DNA from: a virus
Taxonomy: Duplodnaviria; Caudoviricetes
Strand: one strand, 5' to 3'
IMG/VR virus record: IMGVR_UViG_3300028591_000094
Location: 96,001 to 160,000 of that record
DNA length: 64,000 bases
In this document: in pieces, positions 27,952 through 59,571 of the stretch
Layout: every line of letters starts with the position of its first letter
Position numbering within the stretch: position 1 is the stretch's first letter
Notes under the pieces: model-generated
Seen by the model: the letters and a program-made list of their open reading frames with translations, nothing else
What the model was told of the DNA's origin: nothing
Databases searched by the model: none
Translations under genes and position numbers: made by a program

Positions 27952-27979
27952 CGATATTTGTAAGACTATGTTCGGAACA

Positions 27980-28777
27980 TTATTCCTGTGTCTGGTTCCA
28001 GTTTACTTGACCGCCTGTGCTTGTACTGGCGTTCTGCGACCAGCCTTGGTTGGGCTGAGCCTGTTTATTCTGAGGGGTCTGCTGGTGTGCCTGCTGTTGC
28101 TGAGTTTGTTGCTGGGGCTGTTGGTTTTGCTGACCCTGTTGACCACCCTGTTGGTTCTGTCCACCCATGAGACCTCCAATAATATTTTTACCTGTCTGGA
28201 GAATGTTTCCAAAGGGGTTACCGCCTTGCTGACCGTTACCGCCTTGCTGACCGTTACCGCCAAGCAATCCACCGAGGACGTTGCCAATTCCACCACCGTT
28301 GGAACCGCCGCCCAAGCTACCGATGCCAAGCAGTTGACCAATCATTGACGGGTTAAGGTTTCCGAGTATGCCACCGAGCATGCCTTCATCGATACTTTCG
28401 TTCATAGCACCGTTCATACCGCCGCCCTGTGCAGCCTGTTTCTTTAGTTTAATACTGTTCTGAATTTCGTTACCAAGTGCCATTGCAAACAGTTTCGACG
28501 TAAGAACTCTGTACAAAACACCGTTCTTGTCGAGTTTGAGCAGATTAGCAATCAAATCGACAGCCTTTTTAATCAGTCCGCTGCCAAGTAAACCACCAAT
28601 CATACCGAGACCGCCTTCGTCAACCTCTTCGTTGAGACCGTTGCAGGCAGCGCCGCATTCATTGGTTCCACACTCGTTGGTGCCGCATTCAGCCATTGAT
28701 TCGTTCATAATACGTATGACCGATTCGCTGATTAAGCTATGTAATTCCTTTTCAGTTAGTTTAACAACTTTTTTCAT
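27980..28777 (-). CDS. Putative internal head protein or polyprotein with MKKVxxLTE leader and G/Q/N-rich cargo
   Basis: Leader shared with the 31285 gene; tandem ATATTTAT motifs at 28802-28815; own terminator. Confidence 0.75.
   Translation of the reverse strand: MKKVVKLTEKELHSLISESVIRIMNESMAECGTNECGTNECGAACNGLNEEVDEGGLGMIGGLLGSGLIKKAVDLIANLLKLDKNGVLYRVLTSKLFAMALGNEIQNSIKLKKQAAQGGGMNGAMNESIDEGMLGGILGNLNPSMIGQLLGIGSLGGGSNGGGIGNVLGGLLGGNGQQGGNGQQGGNPFGNILQTGKNIIGGLMGGQNQQGGQQGQQNQQPQQQTQQQQAHQQTPQNKQAQPNQGWSQNASTSTGGQVNWNQTQE
28212..28261 (-). repeat. 18-nt coding tandem repeat (GGNGQQ)
   Basis: ttaccgccttgctgaccg, about 2.5 copies. Confidence 0.85.
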
Positions 28778-28832
28778 TCTTTATGCAATTGTTTTATTAT
28801 TATAAATATAAATATCATTTTGTTTGAAATTG

Positions 28833-31284: not shown

Positions 31285-31671
31285 TTAATCTGCAACACAG
31301 TTATCAACCAGGTTGTTCCAACTCTGCATAACACCCTTTACATAATGGTTGAAATTAGCGTTGTTACATTGGTTTGCCGCCTGTAACAGAGCTGTCTTAA
31401 ATTGTTGTGCCGCTTGTTCCATATTACAGTTCGCCATTGCCTCGGATACGTTTACACGTTCCTCTTGTGATAGTCCGTTACCAGTGTTAGGTGTGTTGGC
31501 AGTATTTTCGCTATTGCTGTTATTACTATTGCTGGTTGGCTGTACATTGCTCGGAGCGACCGCTGTCGAATGAAGCAGTTTCAGGAATCCCTCGTTGAGT
31601 TTCTGTTCCTCTAAAGCCTTCGTAATAATGCGGCGTATATCCTGTTCGGTTAAATGTATAACTTTTTTCAT
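31285..31671 (-). CDS. Putative internal head protein with MKKVxxLTE leader
   Basis: MKKVIHLTEQDIRRIITKALEEQKLNEG; TATTTAT motifs at ~31691-31701. Confidence 0.72.
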   Translation of the reverse strand: MKKVIHLTEQDIRRIITKALEEQKLNEGFLKLLHSTAVAPSNVQPTSNSNNSNSENTANTPNTGNGLSQEERVNVSEAMANCNMEQAAQQFKTALLQAANQCNNANFNHYVKGVMQSWNNLVDNCVAD

Positions 31672-31712
31672 CTCTTTTATTATATAATTTATAAATAAAT
31701 AGAGATAAAAAC

Positions 31713-31767: not shown

Positions 31768-34191
31768 TTAACTGCAACGCGACCAGCCACAACTAGGGCA
31801 GTGGACACAACCTCCTTCGTTAACCAGTTTACTGCCACATTCTGGACACGCCTCATCGGTTTCGGTTGGCGCGATATATTTGGATAACACTCTGGAAATA
31901 GCTCTATTGAAGGAATTGATTCCGTCGTTGCACTTATCTTCCAGCTTGATGATATCTTCCAAACGCATACCAGTACGCAGGTTGCCGCTGACATGGAGGG
32001 CAACGTTACGGTATTCACGCTTTTCACTCCACTCCTTGATATTGTACACAGCGTTTTTAATGTTCTCAGTGTCGAGTTTGGTGAGCTTTCTACCCTCATT
32101 GACAATTTCGGAAATCTTGTCGATTTCGCCGAAGATGTCATAGTCATCACCCAGAGCGATTGCCACGTTGTCGATAGTGAGGATATCGGATTCAAATTTG
32201 TATTCTCTCTTTTTTACTCTGGTAATCTTGCCTTTGTGGTTCTTCACCTTCTGACAGTTGTCGCACGGGAGTGCAAAGAGTTCATATGGCTTATCGTTCA
32301 ACAAACCAACAATAATGATAAAGTTCTCACCCTGTACCTTGACCTGATAGTAGTCGGCTGGCAGAGTCTTCGGACGTTTCGGGGCGTTGACAGTGTCGAA
32401 CGTACCCTCCACCTCTTTCTTACCGCCACGGTTGAGGATGGCAAGACGCTTGCAGTTCTCACGGAACACCGTTACACCCTTCAACCCCTGTTTCCAGGCT
32501 TGCATATAAATGTCATACACATCGTTGACGGTCGCTTTCTCTGGCAGGTTGATTGTTGAGCTGATTGAAGCGTCGATATTTTTCTGGAGTGCAGCCTGCA
32601 TACCAACACGTTCCATCGGGGTTAACTCAGCCGAAGCTACAAAGTAGTCGGGTAGTTCGTCAAGCTTCTTGTTAATATATTCTTGGTCAAGATTATATAT
32701 GTCAATGTTATCACCGAAATAGTCCAGGACTGCTTGTGGGAATACGTTATATGACTGTTCACCAATCGACTTGGTGTCCCTGGTATAGTAGTAATCAAAC
32801 ATAGGTTCCCCGCCACCAGCGGTCGCGTTCAGCATTGTTGAGATGGTTCCCGTAGGAGCAATCGTTAGCAACTGGCTGTTGAGGGGGTATTTACCTTTGT
32901 ATTTCGGGTCGATAAACGGTTCCACTCTGGTTTTGTAGAACTCGGACTCAAACATTTTGTCATAGACAACACCTGATGTGTTGAGTTCACATGATTCCTC
33001 GAAAGCAGCAATCAGCATTGTATGCGTGATGTCATCGGCAGCCTTCTGTCCTTCAGGAGAACCATACTTGACGCCCATTTTCAATAAAGCACCTGCAAGG
33101 TCAAAGATGCCGAGACCAATTTGTTTATACTGACGGGCAGTCTGGCGCTGGACTTCAAGTGGATGCAGTTCAGTACCCTCCACCTGGATTTCATTCAAGG
33201 CTTTAGTTGCAATCTTTACGTCCTTTTTGAACTCGTCAAAATTAAACTCACCGTTTTCCTTTACATATTGATAAAGGTTCATTGAGCCTAACAAACACGC
33301 ACCACCGTCTGGGAGGGGTTCTTCGGCGCATGGGTTTACACCAGCATAAACAAAATCCTCGTTAGCCGACATAAGGTTGTAGTTGGAAATTCTATCCCAG
33401 TAGAGAATACCTGGCTCACCATAATCCCAGTTGTTTTTCGCCAATTTCATGAAAAGCTCTCTAGCTTTAACCTTGCGGAGATAGACAGGTCCGCTTGTGG
33501 TGTCAACCTTGGTTAAGTTATTATATTCCAGCGCGTCTTTCTCCTGATTACTGATTGTCATTTCACATGGCCAGTGGAGAATGTAGTCCTCGTTATTTTC
33601 CACTGCGGTCATGAAGTCATCGTGCATCCTCACCGAAATGTTGGCATTGGTGATTTGGTCTGTGTTAGCCTTGATATCAATAAACTCTGGAGCATCGGGA
33701 TGTTTGATGTCAATTGAAATCATCAAAGCACCACGGCGACCGTGCTGTCCTATCGTACCAGTCACATTGTCAAAAGTTTTCATGAATGAGACGGCACCAG
33801 TAGTTGTCTTCGCGCTGTTGTGGACGTCAGCACCAGCTGGCCTAAGTTTCGAAATGTCAATACCAACGCCGCCACCATATGAATAGGTGCGAGCCATCTT
33901 AGCTGCACAGTCGTAAATACTCTCGATTGAATCGTCAACCGAAAGTACGTAGCAATTGCTTAGGGTTGATTTAACACCTCGGTCTCTTAATCCCCTGTTG
34001 GAAATTATACGTCCGCCAGGGATGAATTTTTTCTCAAGAAACAGTCTTTTTGCATCTGGGTTGCCACCTGAAACTCGTTCAGCCCACCCGTTCAAGTCCT
34101 CATTCGGCTGAAGGTACTTCCTACTAACAATGTCAATGCCTAACTGATTGTTATTCAGCCATTTCTTTAATTCATTATTTGTGTTGTTCAT
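31768..34191 (-). CDS. nrdJ: Class II (adenosylcobalamin-dependent) ribonucleotide reductase
   Basis: SNCYV, RRGA, NPCAEEPL, CLLGS, TIAPTGTIS, GLKGVTVFR (no class I YY pair), C-terminal Cys ribbon. ATG 34191 preferred over the ORF-track GTG 34248. Confidence 0.92.
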   Translation of the reverse strand: MNNTNNELKKWLNNNQLGIDIVSRKYLQPNEDLNGWAERVSGGNPDAKRLFLEKKFIPGGRIISNRGLRDRGVKSTLSNCYVLSVDDSIESIYDCAAKMARTYSYGGGVGIDISKLRPAGADVHNSAKTTTGAVSFMKTFDNVTGTIGQHGRRGALMISIDIKHPDAPEFIDIKANTDQITNANISVRMHDDFMTAVENNEDYILHWPCEMTISNQEKDALEYNNLTKVDTTSGPVYLRKVKARELFMKLAKNNWDYGEPGILYWDRISNYNLMSANEDFVYAGVNPCAEEPLPDGGACLLGSMNLYQYVKENGEFNFDEFKKDVKIATKALNEIQVEGTELHPLEVQRQTARQYKQIGLGIFDLAGALLKMGVKYGSPEGQKAADDITHTMLIAAFEESCELNTSGVVYDKMFESEFYKTRVEPFIDPKYKGKYPLNSQLLTIAPTGTISTMLNATAGGGEPMFDYYYTRDTKSIGEQSYNVFPQAVLDYFGDNIDIYNLDQEYINKKLDELPDYFVASAELTPMERVGMQAALQKNIDASISSTINLPEKATVNDVYDIYMQAWKQGLKGVTVFRENCKRLAILNRGGKKEVEGTFDTVNAPKRPKTLPADYYQVKVQGENFIIIVGLLNDKPYELFALPCDNCQKVKNHKGKITRVKKREYKFESDILTIDNVAIALGDDYDIFGEIDKISEIVNEGRKLTKLDTENIKNAVYNIKEWSEKREYRNVALHVSGNLRTGMRLEDIIKLEDKCNDGINSFNRAISRVLSKYIAPTETDEACPECGSKLVNEGGCVHCPSCGWSRCS

Positions 34192-34248
34192 AAAAAAATT
34201 GATTAGTGAAATATAGTATATATAGTTGAAAAATCTTATTTTTTTCAC

Positions 34249-35676
34249 CTATTTTCTCTGACTATCTCGTATCTGTTTGGCAGTCGCGGTGTTATAATTT
34301 TGAGTATTATTTAACGCACTGTCGACGTCGTCTGTCATGGTACTGAAATCAAACTTCGTCGTACCGTTGTTGAATGTTACACCTAGGAATTCATTGCGCT
34401 TGATACGCCCAGGACGGAACTTGTTGATAAAGATATTAATTTTATCCTCAAGACGCATCGCCTCCGTTCTGGCGAACGAAATGATGACATGTCCAATCTG
34501 GACTTTCTTTACCGAACCACCAGCTTGACTCATGCCAACAATCTGCTGATTGAACGAGTCTTTGGTTCCCTGGACTGGGCACCATAAAGCAACATTGAAT
34601 TCGTGCGCTATTGCCTCCAGCTTACGCATGGTTATACCTTCCCTGGTATATTCTTTGTCCTCGATGGACGAGCCACGTTCAAGTTTCAAGCATTCAAAGT
34701 AGTCGACAACCACCATGTCAGGTTTAAAGCCTCTGGCTATCAACTGTTTTATTTTAGCCTTAAGGTCACTTGCTGAAAATTCTCCAGACTGAGGGTGGAA
34801 TGCAATCACATTGTCCTGTATCATTTGTTTCCACTCGTTCTGATTTATCATCTGAACAACAATCGGACGAATTTCAGGCTGACTAAGTGTACATGCATCA
34901 AAATCAGTCAGGAATGCATAGTATTTACGTTTGATGTTTACATCCTCATCTTCGAAATGAATATGTAGAACTTTATATCCTTTATAGTTATTTTCCTCAG
35001 TCTTGGTAACCGCTGCATTCGCTGCAAACCCTGTCGTAGCCGAGGTTTTACCGACACTAGATGGCGCTATTATAATACCAAGTTCACCCTTAGCCAAGCC
35101 ACCATAAAGTGCCTCGTCAAGTTTGTCGGCACCCGTAGGAATTGCACAACGATAATCCTCCTTCAGCGCATCCTCCATATTATCGAAGATATGGTAGCCA
35201 AGTTCAGTTTTGTTGTTACACTCTAAGGCTTTTTTGAATATATCCTCAATATCATAATATCTTTCATTATTTCCCTCTTGGATAATGTCTTGAGCCTCTT
35301 TGATTGCCTTAATAAGATTCTGTTGTTTGAAAAACTTTTCAGAGTAACCTTCAATCAAGTCAATACCGCGTGTGGTGATATTGCTGATTTTGTCCAACAT
35401 AGCTAAACACTGTTCCTTTTCAACAGCATTGCTTACTTTGCTGCGAATCAGAGTATCCAAATCCTTGTATGAAGCCACAGTTTCATTGAGGGCGTATCTG
35501 TCTTTCATGAAACCAACTATTCGGCGCAGGTGTGCCACACTGAACATATTTTGGTTTATGATAGGCTCAAGTCCAATGAAAAACTGCTGGTCTTCAATGA
35601 AACACTTGACGAGTTCAATCTGAAAATCTTCTCCTAAATAGCCTAAATCTTCTTTTTTCTCTAATACTTTAGCCAT
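34249..35676 (-). CDS. dnaB: Replicative DnaB/gp41-like helicase
   Basis: GGLAKGELG, Walker A APSSVGKT, HFED, Walker B VVVDY, KFRPG. Confidence 0.88.
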   Translation of the reverse strand: MAKVLEKKEDLGYLGEDFQIELVKCFIEDQQFFIGLEPIINQNMFSVAHLRRIVGFMKDRYALNETVASYKDLDTLIRSKVSNAVEKEQCLAMLDKISNITTRGIDLIEGYSEKFFKQQNLIKAIKEAQDIIQEGNNERYYDIEDIFKKALECNNKTELGYHIFDNMEDALKEDYRCAIPTGADKLDEALYGGLAKGELGIIIAPSSVGKTSATTGFAANAAVTKTEENNYKGYKVLHIHFEDEDVNIKRKYYAFLTDFDACTLSQPEIRPIVVQMINQNEWKQMIQDNVIAFHPQSGEFSASDLKAKIKQLIARGFKPDMVVVDYFECLKLERGSSIEDKEYTREGITMRKLEAIAHEFNVALWCPVQGTKDSFNQQIVGMSQAGGSVKKVQIGHVIISFARTEAMRLEDKINIFINKFRPGRIKRNEFLGVTFNNGTTKFDFSTMTDDVDSALNNTQNYNTATAKQIRDSQRK

Positions 35677-35707
35677 TGTGTTAACTGGTTATGTGTTGGA
35701 AGAATAT

Positions 35708-35741
35708 GGGAACCGCCGACATCGATTAAATAGCGGTTCCC
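35708..35741. terminator. Hairpin (terminator or RNA element) between the hypothetical gene and the helicase
   Basis: gggaaccgc...gcggttccc 9-bp stem; weak U tail. Confidence 0.5.
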
Positions 35742-35759
35742 GTTCAAGTACGTGTGTTG

Positions 35760-36557
35760 TTACGGGCGAACTGGACCGTATTTCTTGTTACAATACTCTC
35801 TCCAAGCGTTCACATAATCGCGGGCGTAAGCTGTATAAGCATACTTTTTGGATGTTTCTGGGTTAATACCCGAAACTGTTGCAAATGTAGCGTCAACTCC
35901 GTATTTGGTTGACTTGGTATACTGTTTTGGTGCCTCATTGTCACTGTTTGAACACACTTCGCAAATGCGTTTGATAATTTCAACCACGAGGTCGTCCTTA
36001 CCCGTGTTCATCAACTGTACCATTGGATACTGAGAACGGGCATTAGTGATATCTACGCTGTTACGGACGTATTTCGGATACTGGGAACCGTCCCATATTT
36101 CCTCATAGACAACGCGGTCGTCGACAATAAACAGAAATTTGAATGTTACGTCCCACGGCTGAACAAACTCAGTCTCATCATAGGGCTTTGGCTCGTATTC
36201 CACGTAGGTGACCTCATTTATAGGACAGCCGTTCTCGTCTTTAGCAAAACCTGTCATCTTGGTTCTGCAGTCCTGAGTACTACGGGTGAAAATACGACTT
36301 TTCGACTCCAAATCCCTCTTGATGAGCTGGACTATACCCTTTCGTTTGCCAAGATAGTCCATCTGCTCCTGCTTAGGACCACGATAGCCGCCAAGGGCTT
36401 CGAACAACTCCTGGGAGGTTAAGCTTTCGCTGTTGAAGCGGGGGATTTTGAAGTATCGCTGACAAATAATGTTGTCATTGACCTGTAATTGGAACTGAAA
36501 TCTTTCGCGATAATTACTATTATCTACTTTTTTTGGTGTTTTTACTGTTTCTTCCAT
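35760..36557 (-). CDS. Hypothetical protein in the replication cluster
   Basis: 265-aa ORF; CGTATATTAAT at 36609-36619. Confidence 0.8.
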   Translation of the reverse strand: MEETVKTPKKVDNSNYRERFQFQLQVNDNIICQRYFKIPRFNSESLTSQELFEALGGYRGPKQEQMDYLGKRKGIVQLIKRDLESKSRIFTRSTQDCRTKMTGFAKDENGCPINEVTYVEYEPKPYDETEFVQPWDVTFKFLFIVDDRVVYEEIWDGSQYPKYVRNSVDITNARSQYPMVQLMNTGKDDLVVEIIKRICEVCSNSDNEAPKQYTKSTKYGVDATFATVSGINPETSKKYAYTAYARDYVNAWREYCNKKYGPVRP

Positions 36558-51207: not shown

Positions 51208-51244
51208 ATTAACACTTATATAATATAATATAAATATTTAAGAC

Positions 51245-59507: not shown

Positions 59508-59538
59508 AAGCCATTAAAAAATTTTTCTATATATAAAT

Positions 59539-59571
59539 ATAAGGGCGCCAGTTTTTAATGTGCGCCCTTAT
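59539..59571. terminator. Hairpin overlapping the chaperone stop codon
   Basis: ataagggcgc...gcgcccttat 10-bp stem. Confidence 0.55.

Follow-up and report, generated by a model that had tools for sequence, protein, structure and literature searches.

The locus described here raises the question of whether a 265-residue protein, encoded among the baseplate genes of a huge gut or rumen phage, is made as a precursor for a head protease and, if so, what the protease would set free. The window, by which we mean the whole 64,000-nucleotide stretch that was analysed, belongs to a single 168-kb viral contig estimated to be 45% complete, and the protein itself has no match in Pfam or PHROG scans. Its open reading frame is laid out as a leader, an acidic spacer, a conserved core, a linker and a low-complexity tail, in that order (Table 1). 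We think it probable that the product is an internal protein of the T4 style, targeted to the capsid and trimmed there by the head protease; our confidence in this reading is limited because the protease is inferred from relatives and the evidence is comparative.

Table 1. Coordinates of the gene, its parts and neighbouring elements (positions are those of the window, residues those of the gene product)
Feature	Position	Strand	Basis
Whole gene, putative 265-aa precursor	27980..28777	-	ORF list and homologues P0001-P0021
Two overlapping TATTTATA motifs, 24-37 nt 5' of the ATG, candidate late promoter	28801..28814	-	Motif enrichment
Leader, residues 1-26, MKKVVKLTEKELHSLISESVIRIMNE, amphipathic helix, candidate capsid-targeting sequence	28700..28777	-	Recurrence among ORFs
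Acidic spacer (putative propeptide), residues 27-54, net charge -7	28616..28699	-	Sequence and charge count
Junction 1, LNEEVDE, residues 48-54, predicted cut E54|G55	28616..28636	-	Family alignment
Conserved core, residues 55-114, predicted basic Gly-zipper-rich helical hairpin, GGLGMIGGLLGSG...NGVLYRVLTSKLFAMALGNEIQNSIKLKKQ	28436..28615	-	Alignments, profile search and models
Linker, residues 115-131, closing in junction 2	28385..28435	-	Sequence; predicted coil
Junction 2 heptad, MNESIDE, residues 125-131, candidate second cut E131|G132	28385..28405	-	Sequence
C-terminal tail, residues 132-265 (134 residues)	27983..28384	-	Sequence and composition
Terminator-like hairpin, 12 pairs and a T run, directly after the stop codon	27925..27952	-	Sequence
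Another cassette gene that bears the leader, 128 aa, MKKVIHLTEQDIRRII...KLNE|GFL, with no further relationship to the first gene	31285..31671	-	ORF list and leader profile

Glutamate is found at residues 9, 11, 18, 26, 30, 35, 40, 50, 51, 54, 104, 127, 131 and 265 and aspartate at 53, 74, 83 and 130, so that residues 132-264 are without any acidic residue. The leader includes I-S-E at residues 16-18 and M-N-E at 24-26, and the spacer offers MAE30, LNE50 and VDE54 as candidate protease sites. The two junctions proposed in the first-pass annotation, LNEEVDE|GGLG and MNESIDE|GMLG, are present as written (residues 48-58 and 125-135), and a third copy of the heptad, MNESMAE, lies at the end of the leader (residues 24-30); the three heptads share 68-76% nucleotide identity and constitute DNA repeat family D2. 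When the tandem motif h-x-E-x(1-2)-h-x-E, with h being L, I, V or M, was counted in the ORFs of this genome and of one relative, its rate was 1.05 per 1000 aa, which corresponds to about 0.28 expected in 265 aa versus the three observed (Poisson P ~0.003). The spacer also contains four Cys within residues 30-45 (28643-28690, minus strand), arranged as ECGTN-ECGTN-ECGAAC with spacings of 5, 5 and 4; this stretch is not present in the homologues, and possibly reflects metal or disulfide chemistry, or mere repeat expansion.

The protein belongs to a family of which we found 19 homologues by word-based and exhaustive profile searches; tblastn added further members, from Lak megaphages and from an uncultured phage of 462 kb. 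Neither megablast of the region nor tblastn of the core against isolated phages gave a match, a scan of IMG/VR with the family alignment yielded no confirmed relative, and a protein atlas matched only unnamed viral clusters. Among 20 aligned sequences E54, G55, G61, Y89, S94 and G102 are invariant, and at junction 1, the best-conserved feature of the family, the P3 residue is always L, I, V or M and P2 is D, N or E; the same pattern is seen in Lak-A1 (IVDE|G) and in LR756500.1 (EINE|G), with a single Gly following the Glu in most homologues. The part that precedes this Glu-Gly is hypervariable, with lengths of 35-169 aa, and has a net negative charge (-3 to -16); the 62 residues that follow it form a conserved stretch of net positive charge (+1 to +9) that is free of h-x-E sites. 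One homologue, P0006, is a natural fusion: a full-length leader-bearing protein, about 115 aa long, precedes the core, and the point of joining is exactly the junction ...NENVDE|G.

Junction 2 has a quite different distribution, being restricted to the protein studied here and its closest homologue P0001, in which it reads LNESMDE|N with Asn after the cut; in the remaining homologues the site is missing, or the entire tail is. Conservation of the junctions in homologues had been offered in the first-pass annotation as a test of its proposal, and the outcome is divided: junction 1 is conserved in 19 of 19 homologues and in the two phage records, and junction 2 is not. The broader claim that this is a precursor cleaved after Glu by a head protease is supported, on comparative grounds, by junction 1, by the leader and by the fusion, although the idea of two separate cargoes is weakened by the lineage-specific nature of the second junction. 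That the site is a diverged copy of junction 1 in predicted coil makes a second cut at IDE131|G132 plausible, but because it is limited to this protein and its nearest homologue we would give that cut about one chance in three of being real.

The leader is not confined to this gene. Its pattern, MKKxxxLTExxL..IxE, was followed both by a regular expression compared with shuffled proteins and by a profile (A5) built from 17 leaders. The expression picks out 4 of this genome's 193 ORFs and 11 of the 256 ORFs of G002, the closest large relative, versus 0.26 expected in shuffles; in this genome the four are the gene under discussion, the cassette gene at 31285-31671 of the window, and the genes at 32529-33200 and 94563-94817 of the genome. 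Profile A5 detects 4-13 ORFs per genome in five genomes; G002 accounts for about 13 and G001, a complete relative, for about 10. Positions 16-18 read [IV]-x-E in 12 of 14 leaders, and the tag thus closes in hydrophobic-x-Glu; most of the 14 have a second h-x-E at positions 20-29, often with Gly next. The tagged proteins are otherwise unrelated to one another. In G002 small leader-bearing genes are situated between the T4-type portal and S77 protease genes, in the region that houses the prohead-core genes of T4, and beside the Gp23 capsid gene, and in G001 two such genes lie about 3 kb from the protease gene.

Two of the tagged proteins of G002 have recognizable domains: an EcoRI-type adenine methyltransferase (L034:2654-3649, minus strand; PF13651, 1e-90) and a lysozyme-domain protein (L046:3110-3916, plus strand), in which a leader ending in RVEE|G precedes a hydrophobic helix rich in Gly. 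Both are plausible candidates for injected enzymes, in the manner of the Dar proteins that phage P1 packages. A second leader-bearing family, of about 115 aa and with the motif QWKHEA..FMAGLRNGN..DPRYVY..HDDH, supplies the part of P0006 that is fused to the core; it is represented in G002 by a 117-aa gene directly upstream of the S77 protease gene (L046:15716-16069) and in another phage by a stand-alone gene (L005:8380-8721), and appears to be a second conserved cargo or core family. In this other huge phage five small leader-bearing genes (113, 173, 231, 176 and 168 aa) stand in a row at L005:8380-14283, broken by a 569-aa collagen-repeat protein, in what looks like a dedicated cargo cluster.

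Within the cargo family the MKK...LTE leader is present in the close homologues and not in the distant ones. Four of the latter begin MKTYNEY, MQTFNEW, MLSYNEF and METFIEY, resembling the T4 capsid-targeting sequence (CTS) MKTYQEFIAE. We considered whether such a start, expressed as M-x-[TS]-[YF]-x-E-[FYW], is a recurrent tag in LR756500.1 and Lak-A1, and rejected this, there being one true match per genome: in LR756500.1 the pattern matches the family member alone, and the match in Lak-A1 falls inside a 692-residue reading frame. For that reason we treat the likeness to the T4 sequence as no more than a lead. The Lak-A1 homologue (L054:3854-4180) contains an in-frame TAG, and when this is read as Gln the frame runs on into the conserved LLTSRL...G. 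This agrees with the known recoding of that phage (PMC8346664), and can be taken as a small independent confirmation of TAG recoding in these phages.

The gene sits in a baseplate module, between a Baseplate_J-like gene and a gene for an 82-aa membrane protein; the latter is followed by a gene for a giant baseplate or fibre protein of 2271 aa, and a gp25-like wedge gene lies further upstream. No S77 protease, Gp23 or T4 portal gene was detected in this 45%-complete contig, and a PHROG scan of ten of its large ORFs found no head genes. Searching with the Baseplate_J protein gave relatives that are 56-74% identical in it, among them contigs of 245-339 kb, and four of the five carry a Peptidase_S77 protease of the T4 gp21 type, the fifth being a 60%-complete record. 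Lak-A1 and LR756500.1 also encode an S77 protease; in Lak-A1 about 5 kb separate the protease gene from the homologue, which is upstream of it and has the same orientation. G002, whose baseplate-J protein is 72% identical, is collinear with this genome, sharing 93 of 193 ORFs at a mean identity of 56%, and has a head module of T4 type with a Gp23 capsid protein, a T4 portal, an S77 protease and a T4-type terminase; judged from this collinear relative, the missing half of the present genome very probably carries the same module.

The cargo family itself was not found in five related genomes, one of which is complete, in a search run with a positive control. At syntenic intergenic sites a leader cassette may be there in one genome and missing from its close relative: G002 has neither of those in the window (the gene discussed here and 31285-31671) and has a different one at 93913-94344, where this genome has 61 nt (110223-110283). 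This turnover resembles that at the polymorphic internal-protein loci of the T-even phages. The contexts of the homologues also differ widely, some being near terminase and portal genes, before a DNA polymerase gene or within a cluster of leader genes, and two distant homologues lie at the end of tail-fibre-like clusters. Each leader cassette at the presence/absence sites has a TATTTATA motif. There are 20 occurrences of TATTTATA in the window versus 5.2 expected, and the motif probably serves as a late promoter in this phage clade. It often lies just 5' of late or structural genes on the coding strand, for example at 28801-28814, 31690-31697, 51229-51236 and 59532-59539, the second of these preceding the second leader ORF. 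Elsewhere in the genome, at 33197-35779 (L004:3197-5779), there are genes for a dTDP-glucose-dehydratase-like protein, a radical-SAM protein and an FkbM-family methyltransferase, a cluster that is possibly for sugar or DNA hypermodification.

The two proposed products were also described in the first-pass annotation by their composition, and here its account agrees with ours. Its first cargo, which it likened to a cationic amphipathic helix, has a net charge of +3 to +5 and an amphipathic stretch with a hydrophobic moment of about 0.5 at residues 64-87, and its second cargo, noted for a Q/N/G tract and as acid-free up to the final Glu, contains 27% Gly, 24% Gln and 12% Asn. Residues 201-265 are 40% Gln and 11% Asn and have two charged residues, a composition that fits a prion-like tract; the tract is poorly conserved even in P0001 and is missing from most homologues. 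The start of the tail, GMLGGILG...MIGQLLGIG, is Gly-zipper-like and a diverged copy of the start of the core (DNA repeat D7). No segment of the protein reaches transmembrane grade, the maximum 18-residue Kyte-Doolittle mean being 1.09; among the homologues the 19-residue maximum is 0.95-1.79. Given this hydropathy, the lack of a structural match (see below) and the poor conservation of the tail, the further suggestion of membrane-active or self-assembling peptides travelling with the DNA is speculation.

The tail varies among homologues in both length and sequence, and appears to be fast-evolving low-complexity sequence. A perfect 18-nt tandem duplication at 28217-28252, read as two copies of GNGQQG in the tail, points to recent slippage in this low-complexity region. 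Two long ORFs, Leu-rich or otherwise odd, overlap the gene in other frames at 27968-28348 (plus strand) and 28003-28341 (minus strand); they are not genes but a side effect of its repetitive GGN/CAR codons.

The AlphaFold2 model of the full protein is poor (pLDDT 41.7), and at that quality it places helices at residues 9-29, 56-79 and 87-117, with the spacer and linker as coil, both junctions in coil just before helices, and the tail disordered. The compact homologue P0016 gave a better model (pLDDT 73) in which the mature part is a helical hairpin (pLDDT 75-88) and the junction is located at a helix break. Foldseek searches with the P0016 model against the PDB and viral libraries returned nothing significant.

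Processing after Glu by a head protease, together with loading into the head, has good comparative support, namely an invariant junction 1, an acidic hypervariable N-terminus, a leader shared by unrelated proteins (some of them encoded beside the S77 protease gene in a relative) and a fusion at the junction itself. In the scheme that we propose, the leader of about 18-26 residues would act as a capsid-targeting sequence that carries the precursor to the prohead's scaffolding core. There a gp21-type protease (MEROPS S77) that cuts after Glu in hydrophobic-x-Glu would cleave the leader and acidic spacer in several places. VDE54|G55 would be the final site to be cut, with release of the basic Gly-zipper hairpin, from residue 55 to about 115. 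The acidic propeptide would probably hold the sticky cationic domain in a soluble, inactive state up to its arrival in the head, and the lineage-specific IDE131|G132 site may, less certainly, detach the Gly/Gln/Asn tail. Our best guess is that the mature hairpin is an oligomerizing protein that associates with DNA or membrane and leaves the capsid with the DNA.

The elements of this scheme have precedents. The T4 CTS is removed inside the head (PMC8442874), and gp21 cuts after Glu at Ile/Leu-x-Glu motifs, such as ITE-6 and LTE-619 of Alt, with multiple cuts in propeptides being usual (PMC5694885). As in IPI, IPII, IPIII and Alt of T4, an N-terminal tag ending in hydrophobic-x-Glu is borne by unrelated, dispensable proteins, and the present case has in common with those internal proteins an S77 protease in the lineage, scattered polymorphic cassette genes and a basic mature part. 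Unlike them, it has a tag of 18-26 residues that is unrelated in sequence to MKTYQEFIAE, a long acidic multi-site propeptide between tag and cargo, and a cargo that forms a new family of predicted Gly-zipper hairpins, packaging and cleavage being predictions in the present case. Long propeptides with multiple Glu-specific sites are also removed from head-internal proteins of phiKZ, 201phi2-1 and SPN3US (PMC5694885). The ejection-protein propeptides of these three phages share that design with the scheme proposed here, although they are processed by S80 proteases at A/S-x-Glu sites, as opposed to S77 and a P3 of L, I, V or M, and there is no sequence relationship. Searches of the literature on the T4 system and on huge gut phages retrieved no description of the leader or the cargo family; the tag MKKxxxLTExxL..IxE and the cargo family thus appear to be new, and the scheme of targeting and processing is that known from T4.

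Targeting and cleavage could also be expected of an accessory of the prohead core or scaffold, whose fragments would serve assembly only, as with T4 gp67, gp68 and gp22, and would be expelled or remain inert rather than act as a delivered effector. The small leader-bearing genes of G002 occupy the portal-protease interval held in T4 by genes 67 and 68, and their products resemble the T4 core proteins (for the composition of that core see PMC5694885) in having several Glu sites; the protein described here likewise combines an acidic region with many potential h-x-E sites. We consider this account unlikely, since absence of the family from five relatives, one of them complete, indicates that it is dispensable for head assembly, and the region after junction 1 is strongly conserved and h-x-E-free, as expected of a product that survives; in being accessory and in keeping such a protease-site-free domain the family is unlike gp67, gp68 and gp22. 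Nor do we find it easy to accept that the protein is an uncleaved accessory or structural component, for example of the tail or baseplate, with the leader as an interaction or oligomerization helix and Glu-Gly as a helix cap. The location between the baseplate-J and giant baseplate/fibre genes speaks for such a role, as do the two distant homologues that end tail-fibre-like clusters and a contig (45% complete) without detected head genes. This too is improbable, however, in view of the very different contexts of the homologues and of the absence of the gene from the syntenic baseplate site of relatives, and a helix cap leaves unexplained the always-hydrophobic P3, the hypervariable acidic upstream part and the fusion at the exact junction.

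A membrane-acting role in the producing cell's envelope, either in lysis as a pinholin- or SAR-like hairpin or as a double-glycine-exported, bacteriocin-like peptide, would be in keeping with a hairpin that is cationic, Gly-rich and weakly hydrophobic, with GxxxG motifs, and with the G002 leader protein that couples a Gly-rich helix to a lysozyme domain. The leader pattern MKKxxKLTEKEL..I resembles, as we take it, the leaders of double-glycine bacteriocins, and we would similarly liken the amphipathic leader pattern to class II bacteriocin precursors; in these, as in antimicrobial-peptide precursors, an anionic pro-region is combined with a cationic Gly-rich peptide, a charge split that the present protein shares, its predicted mature part being GxxxG-rich and about 60 residues long. 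We nonetheless hold this role to be very unlikely. The Gly-Gly (or Gly-Ala/Ser) that bacteriocin leaders carry at positions -2/-1 is replaced by x-Glu in 12 of 14 leaders. Unlike a class II bacteriocin the protein has no Gly-Gly processing site, and it has no transporter or immunity gene and stands in a phage structural or head context; moreover, it lacks a transmembrane-grade segment, no endolysin or transporter gene adjoins it, and long acidic N-terminal regions are atypical for holins. Finally, the leader might serve not for sorting but for recognition by a modifying enzyme, for example a radical-SAM maturase of the RiPP-like kind, as this genome and G002 each encode one radical-SAM protein and the leader gene at 32529-33200 of the genome lies about 1 kb from the gene for it. 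The chance of this is very slight and we have rejected it: the radical-SAM gene is part of a sugar-modification cluster with the dehydratase-like and FkbM methyltransferase genes and falls below all peptide-maturase cut-offs, and the complete relative G001 has about 10 leader-bearing ORFs and no radical-SAM gene.

If the protein is indeed a capsid-targeted internal protein, a bolder extension can be imagined, albeit one that we rate as unlikely: huge gut and rumen phages, the Lak megaphages included, would package a safety-catch pro-peptide from which the head protease arms an injected membrane-perturbing or pore-forming hairpin, with the second cut in this phage adding a self-associating Gln/Asn-rich peptide. 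Should that be true, the armed hairpin would be a bacteriocin-like peptide delivered by the virion. The tag may also be of practical use, since the T4 tag is already employed for loading foreign proteins into capsids and this one, if it works as inferred, could do the same for the capsids of such phages. The capsid contents of huge uncultured phages of the gut and rumen are largely uncharted, and the rule of a leader followed by hydrophobic-x-Glu sites and then a cargo would let that cargo be listed from sequence, beginning with one cargo family that is shared with the Lak megaphages and has a sharp predicted cleavage site.
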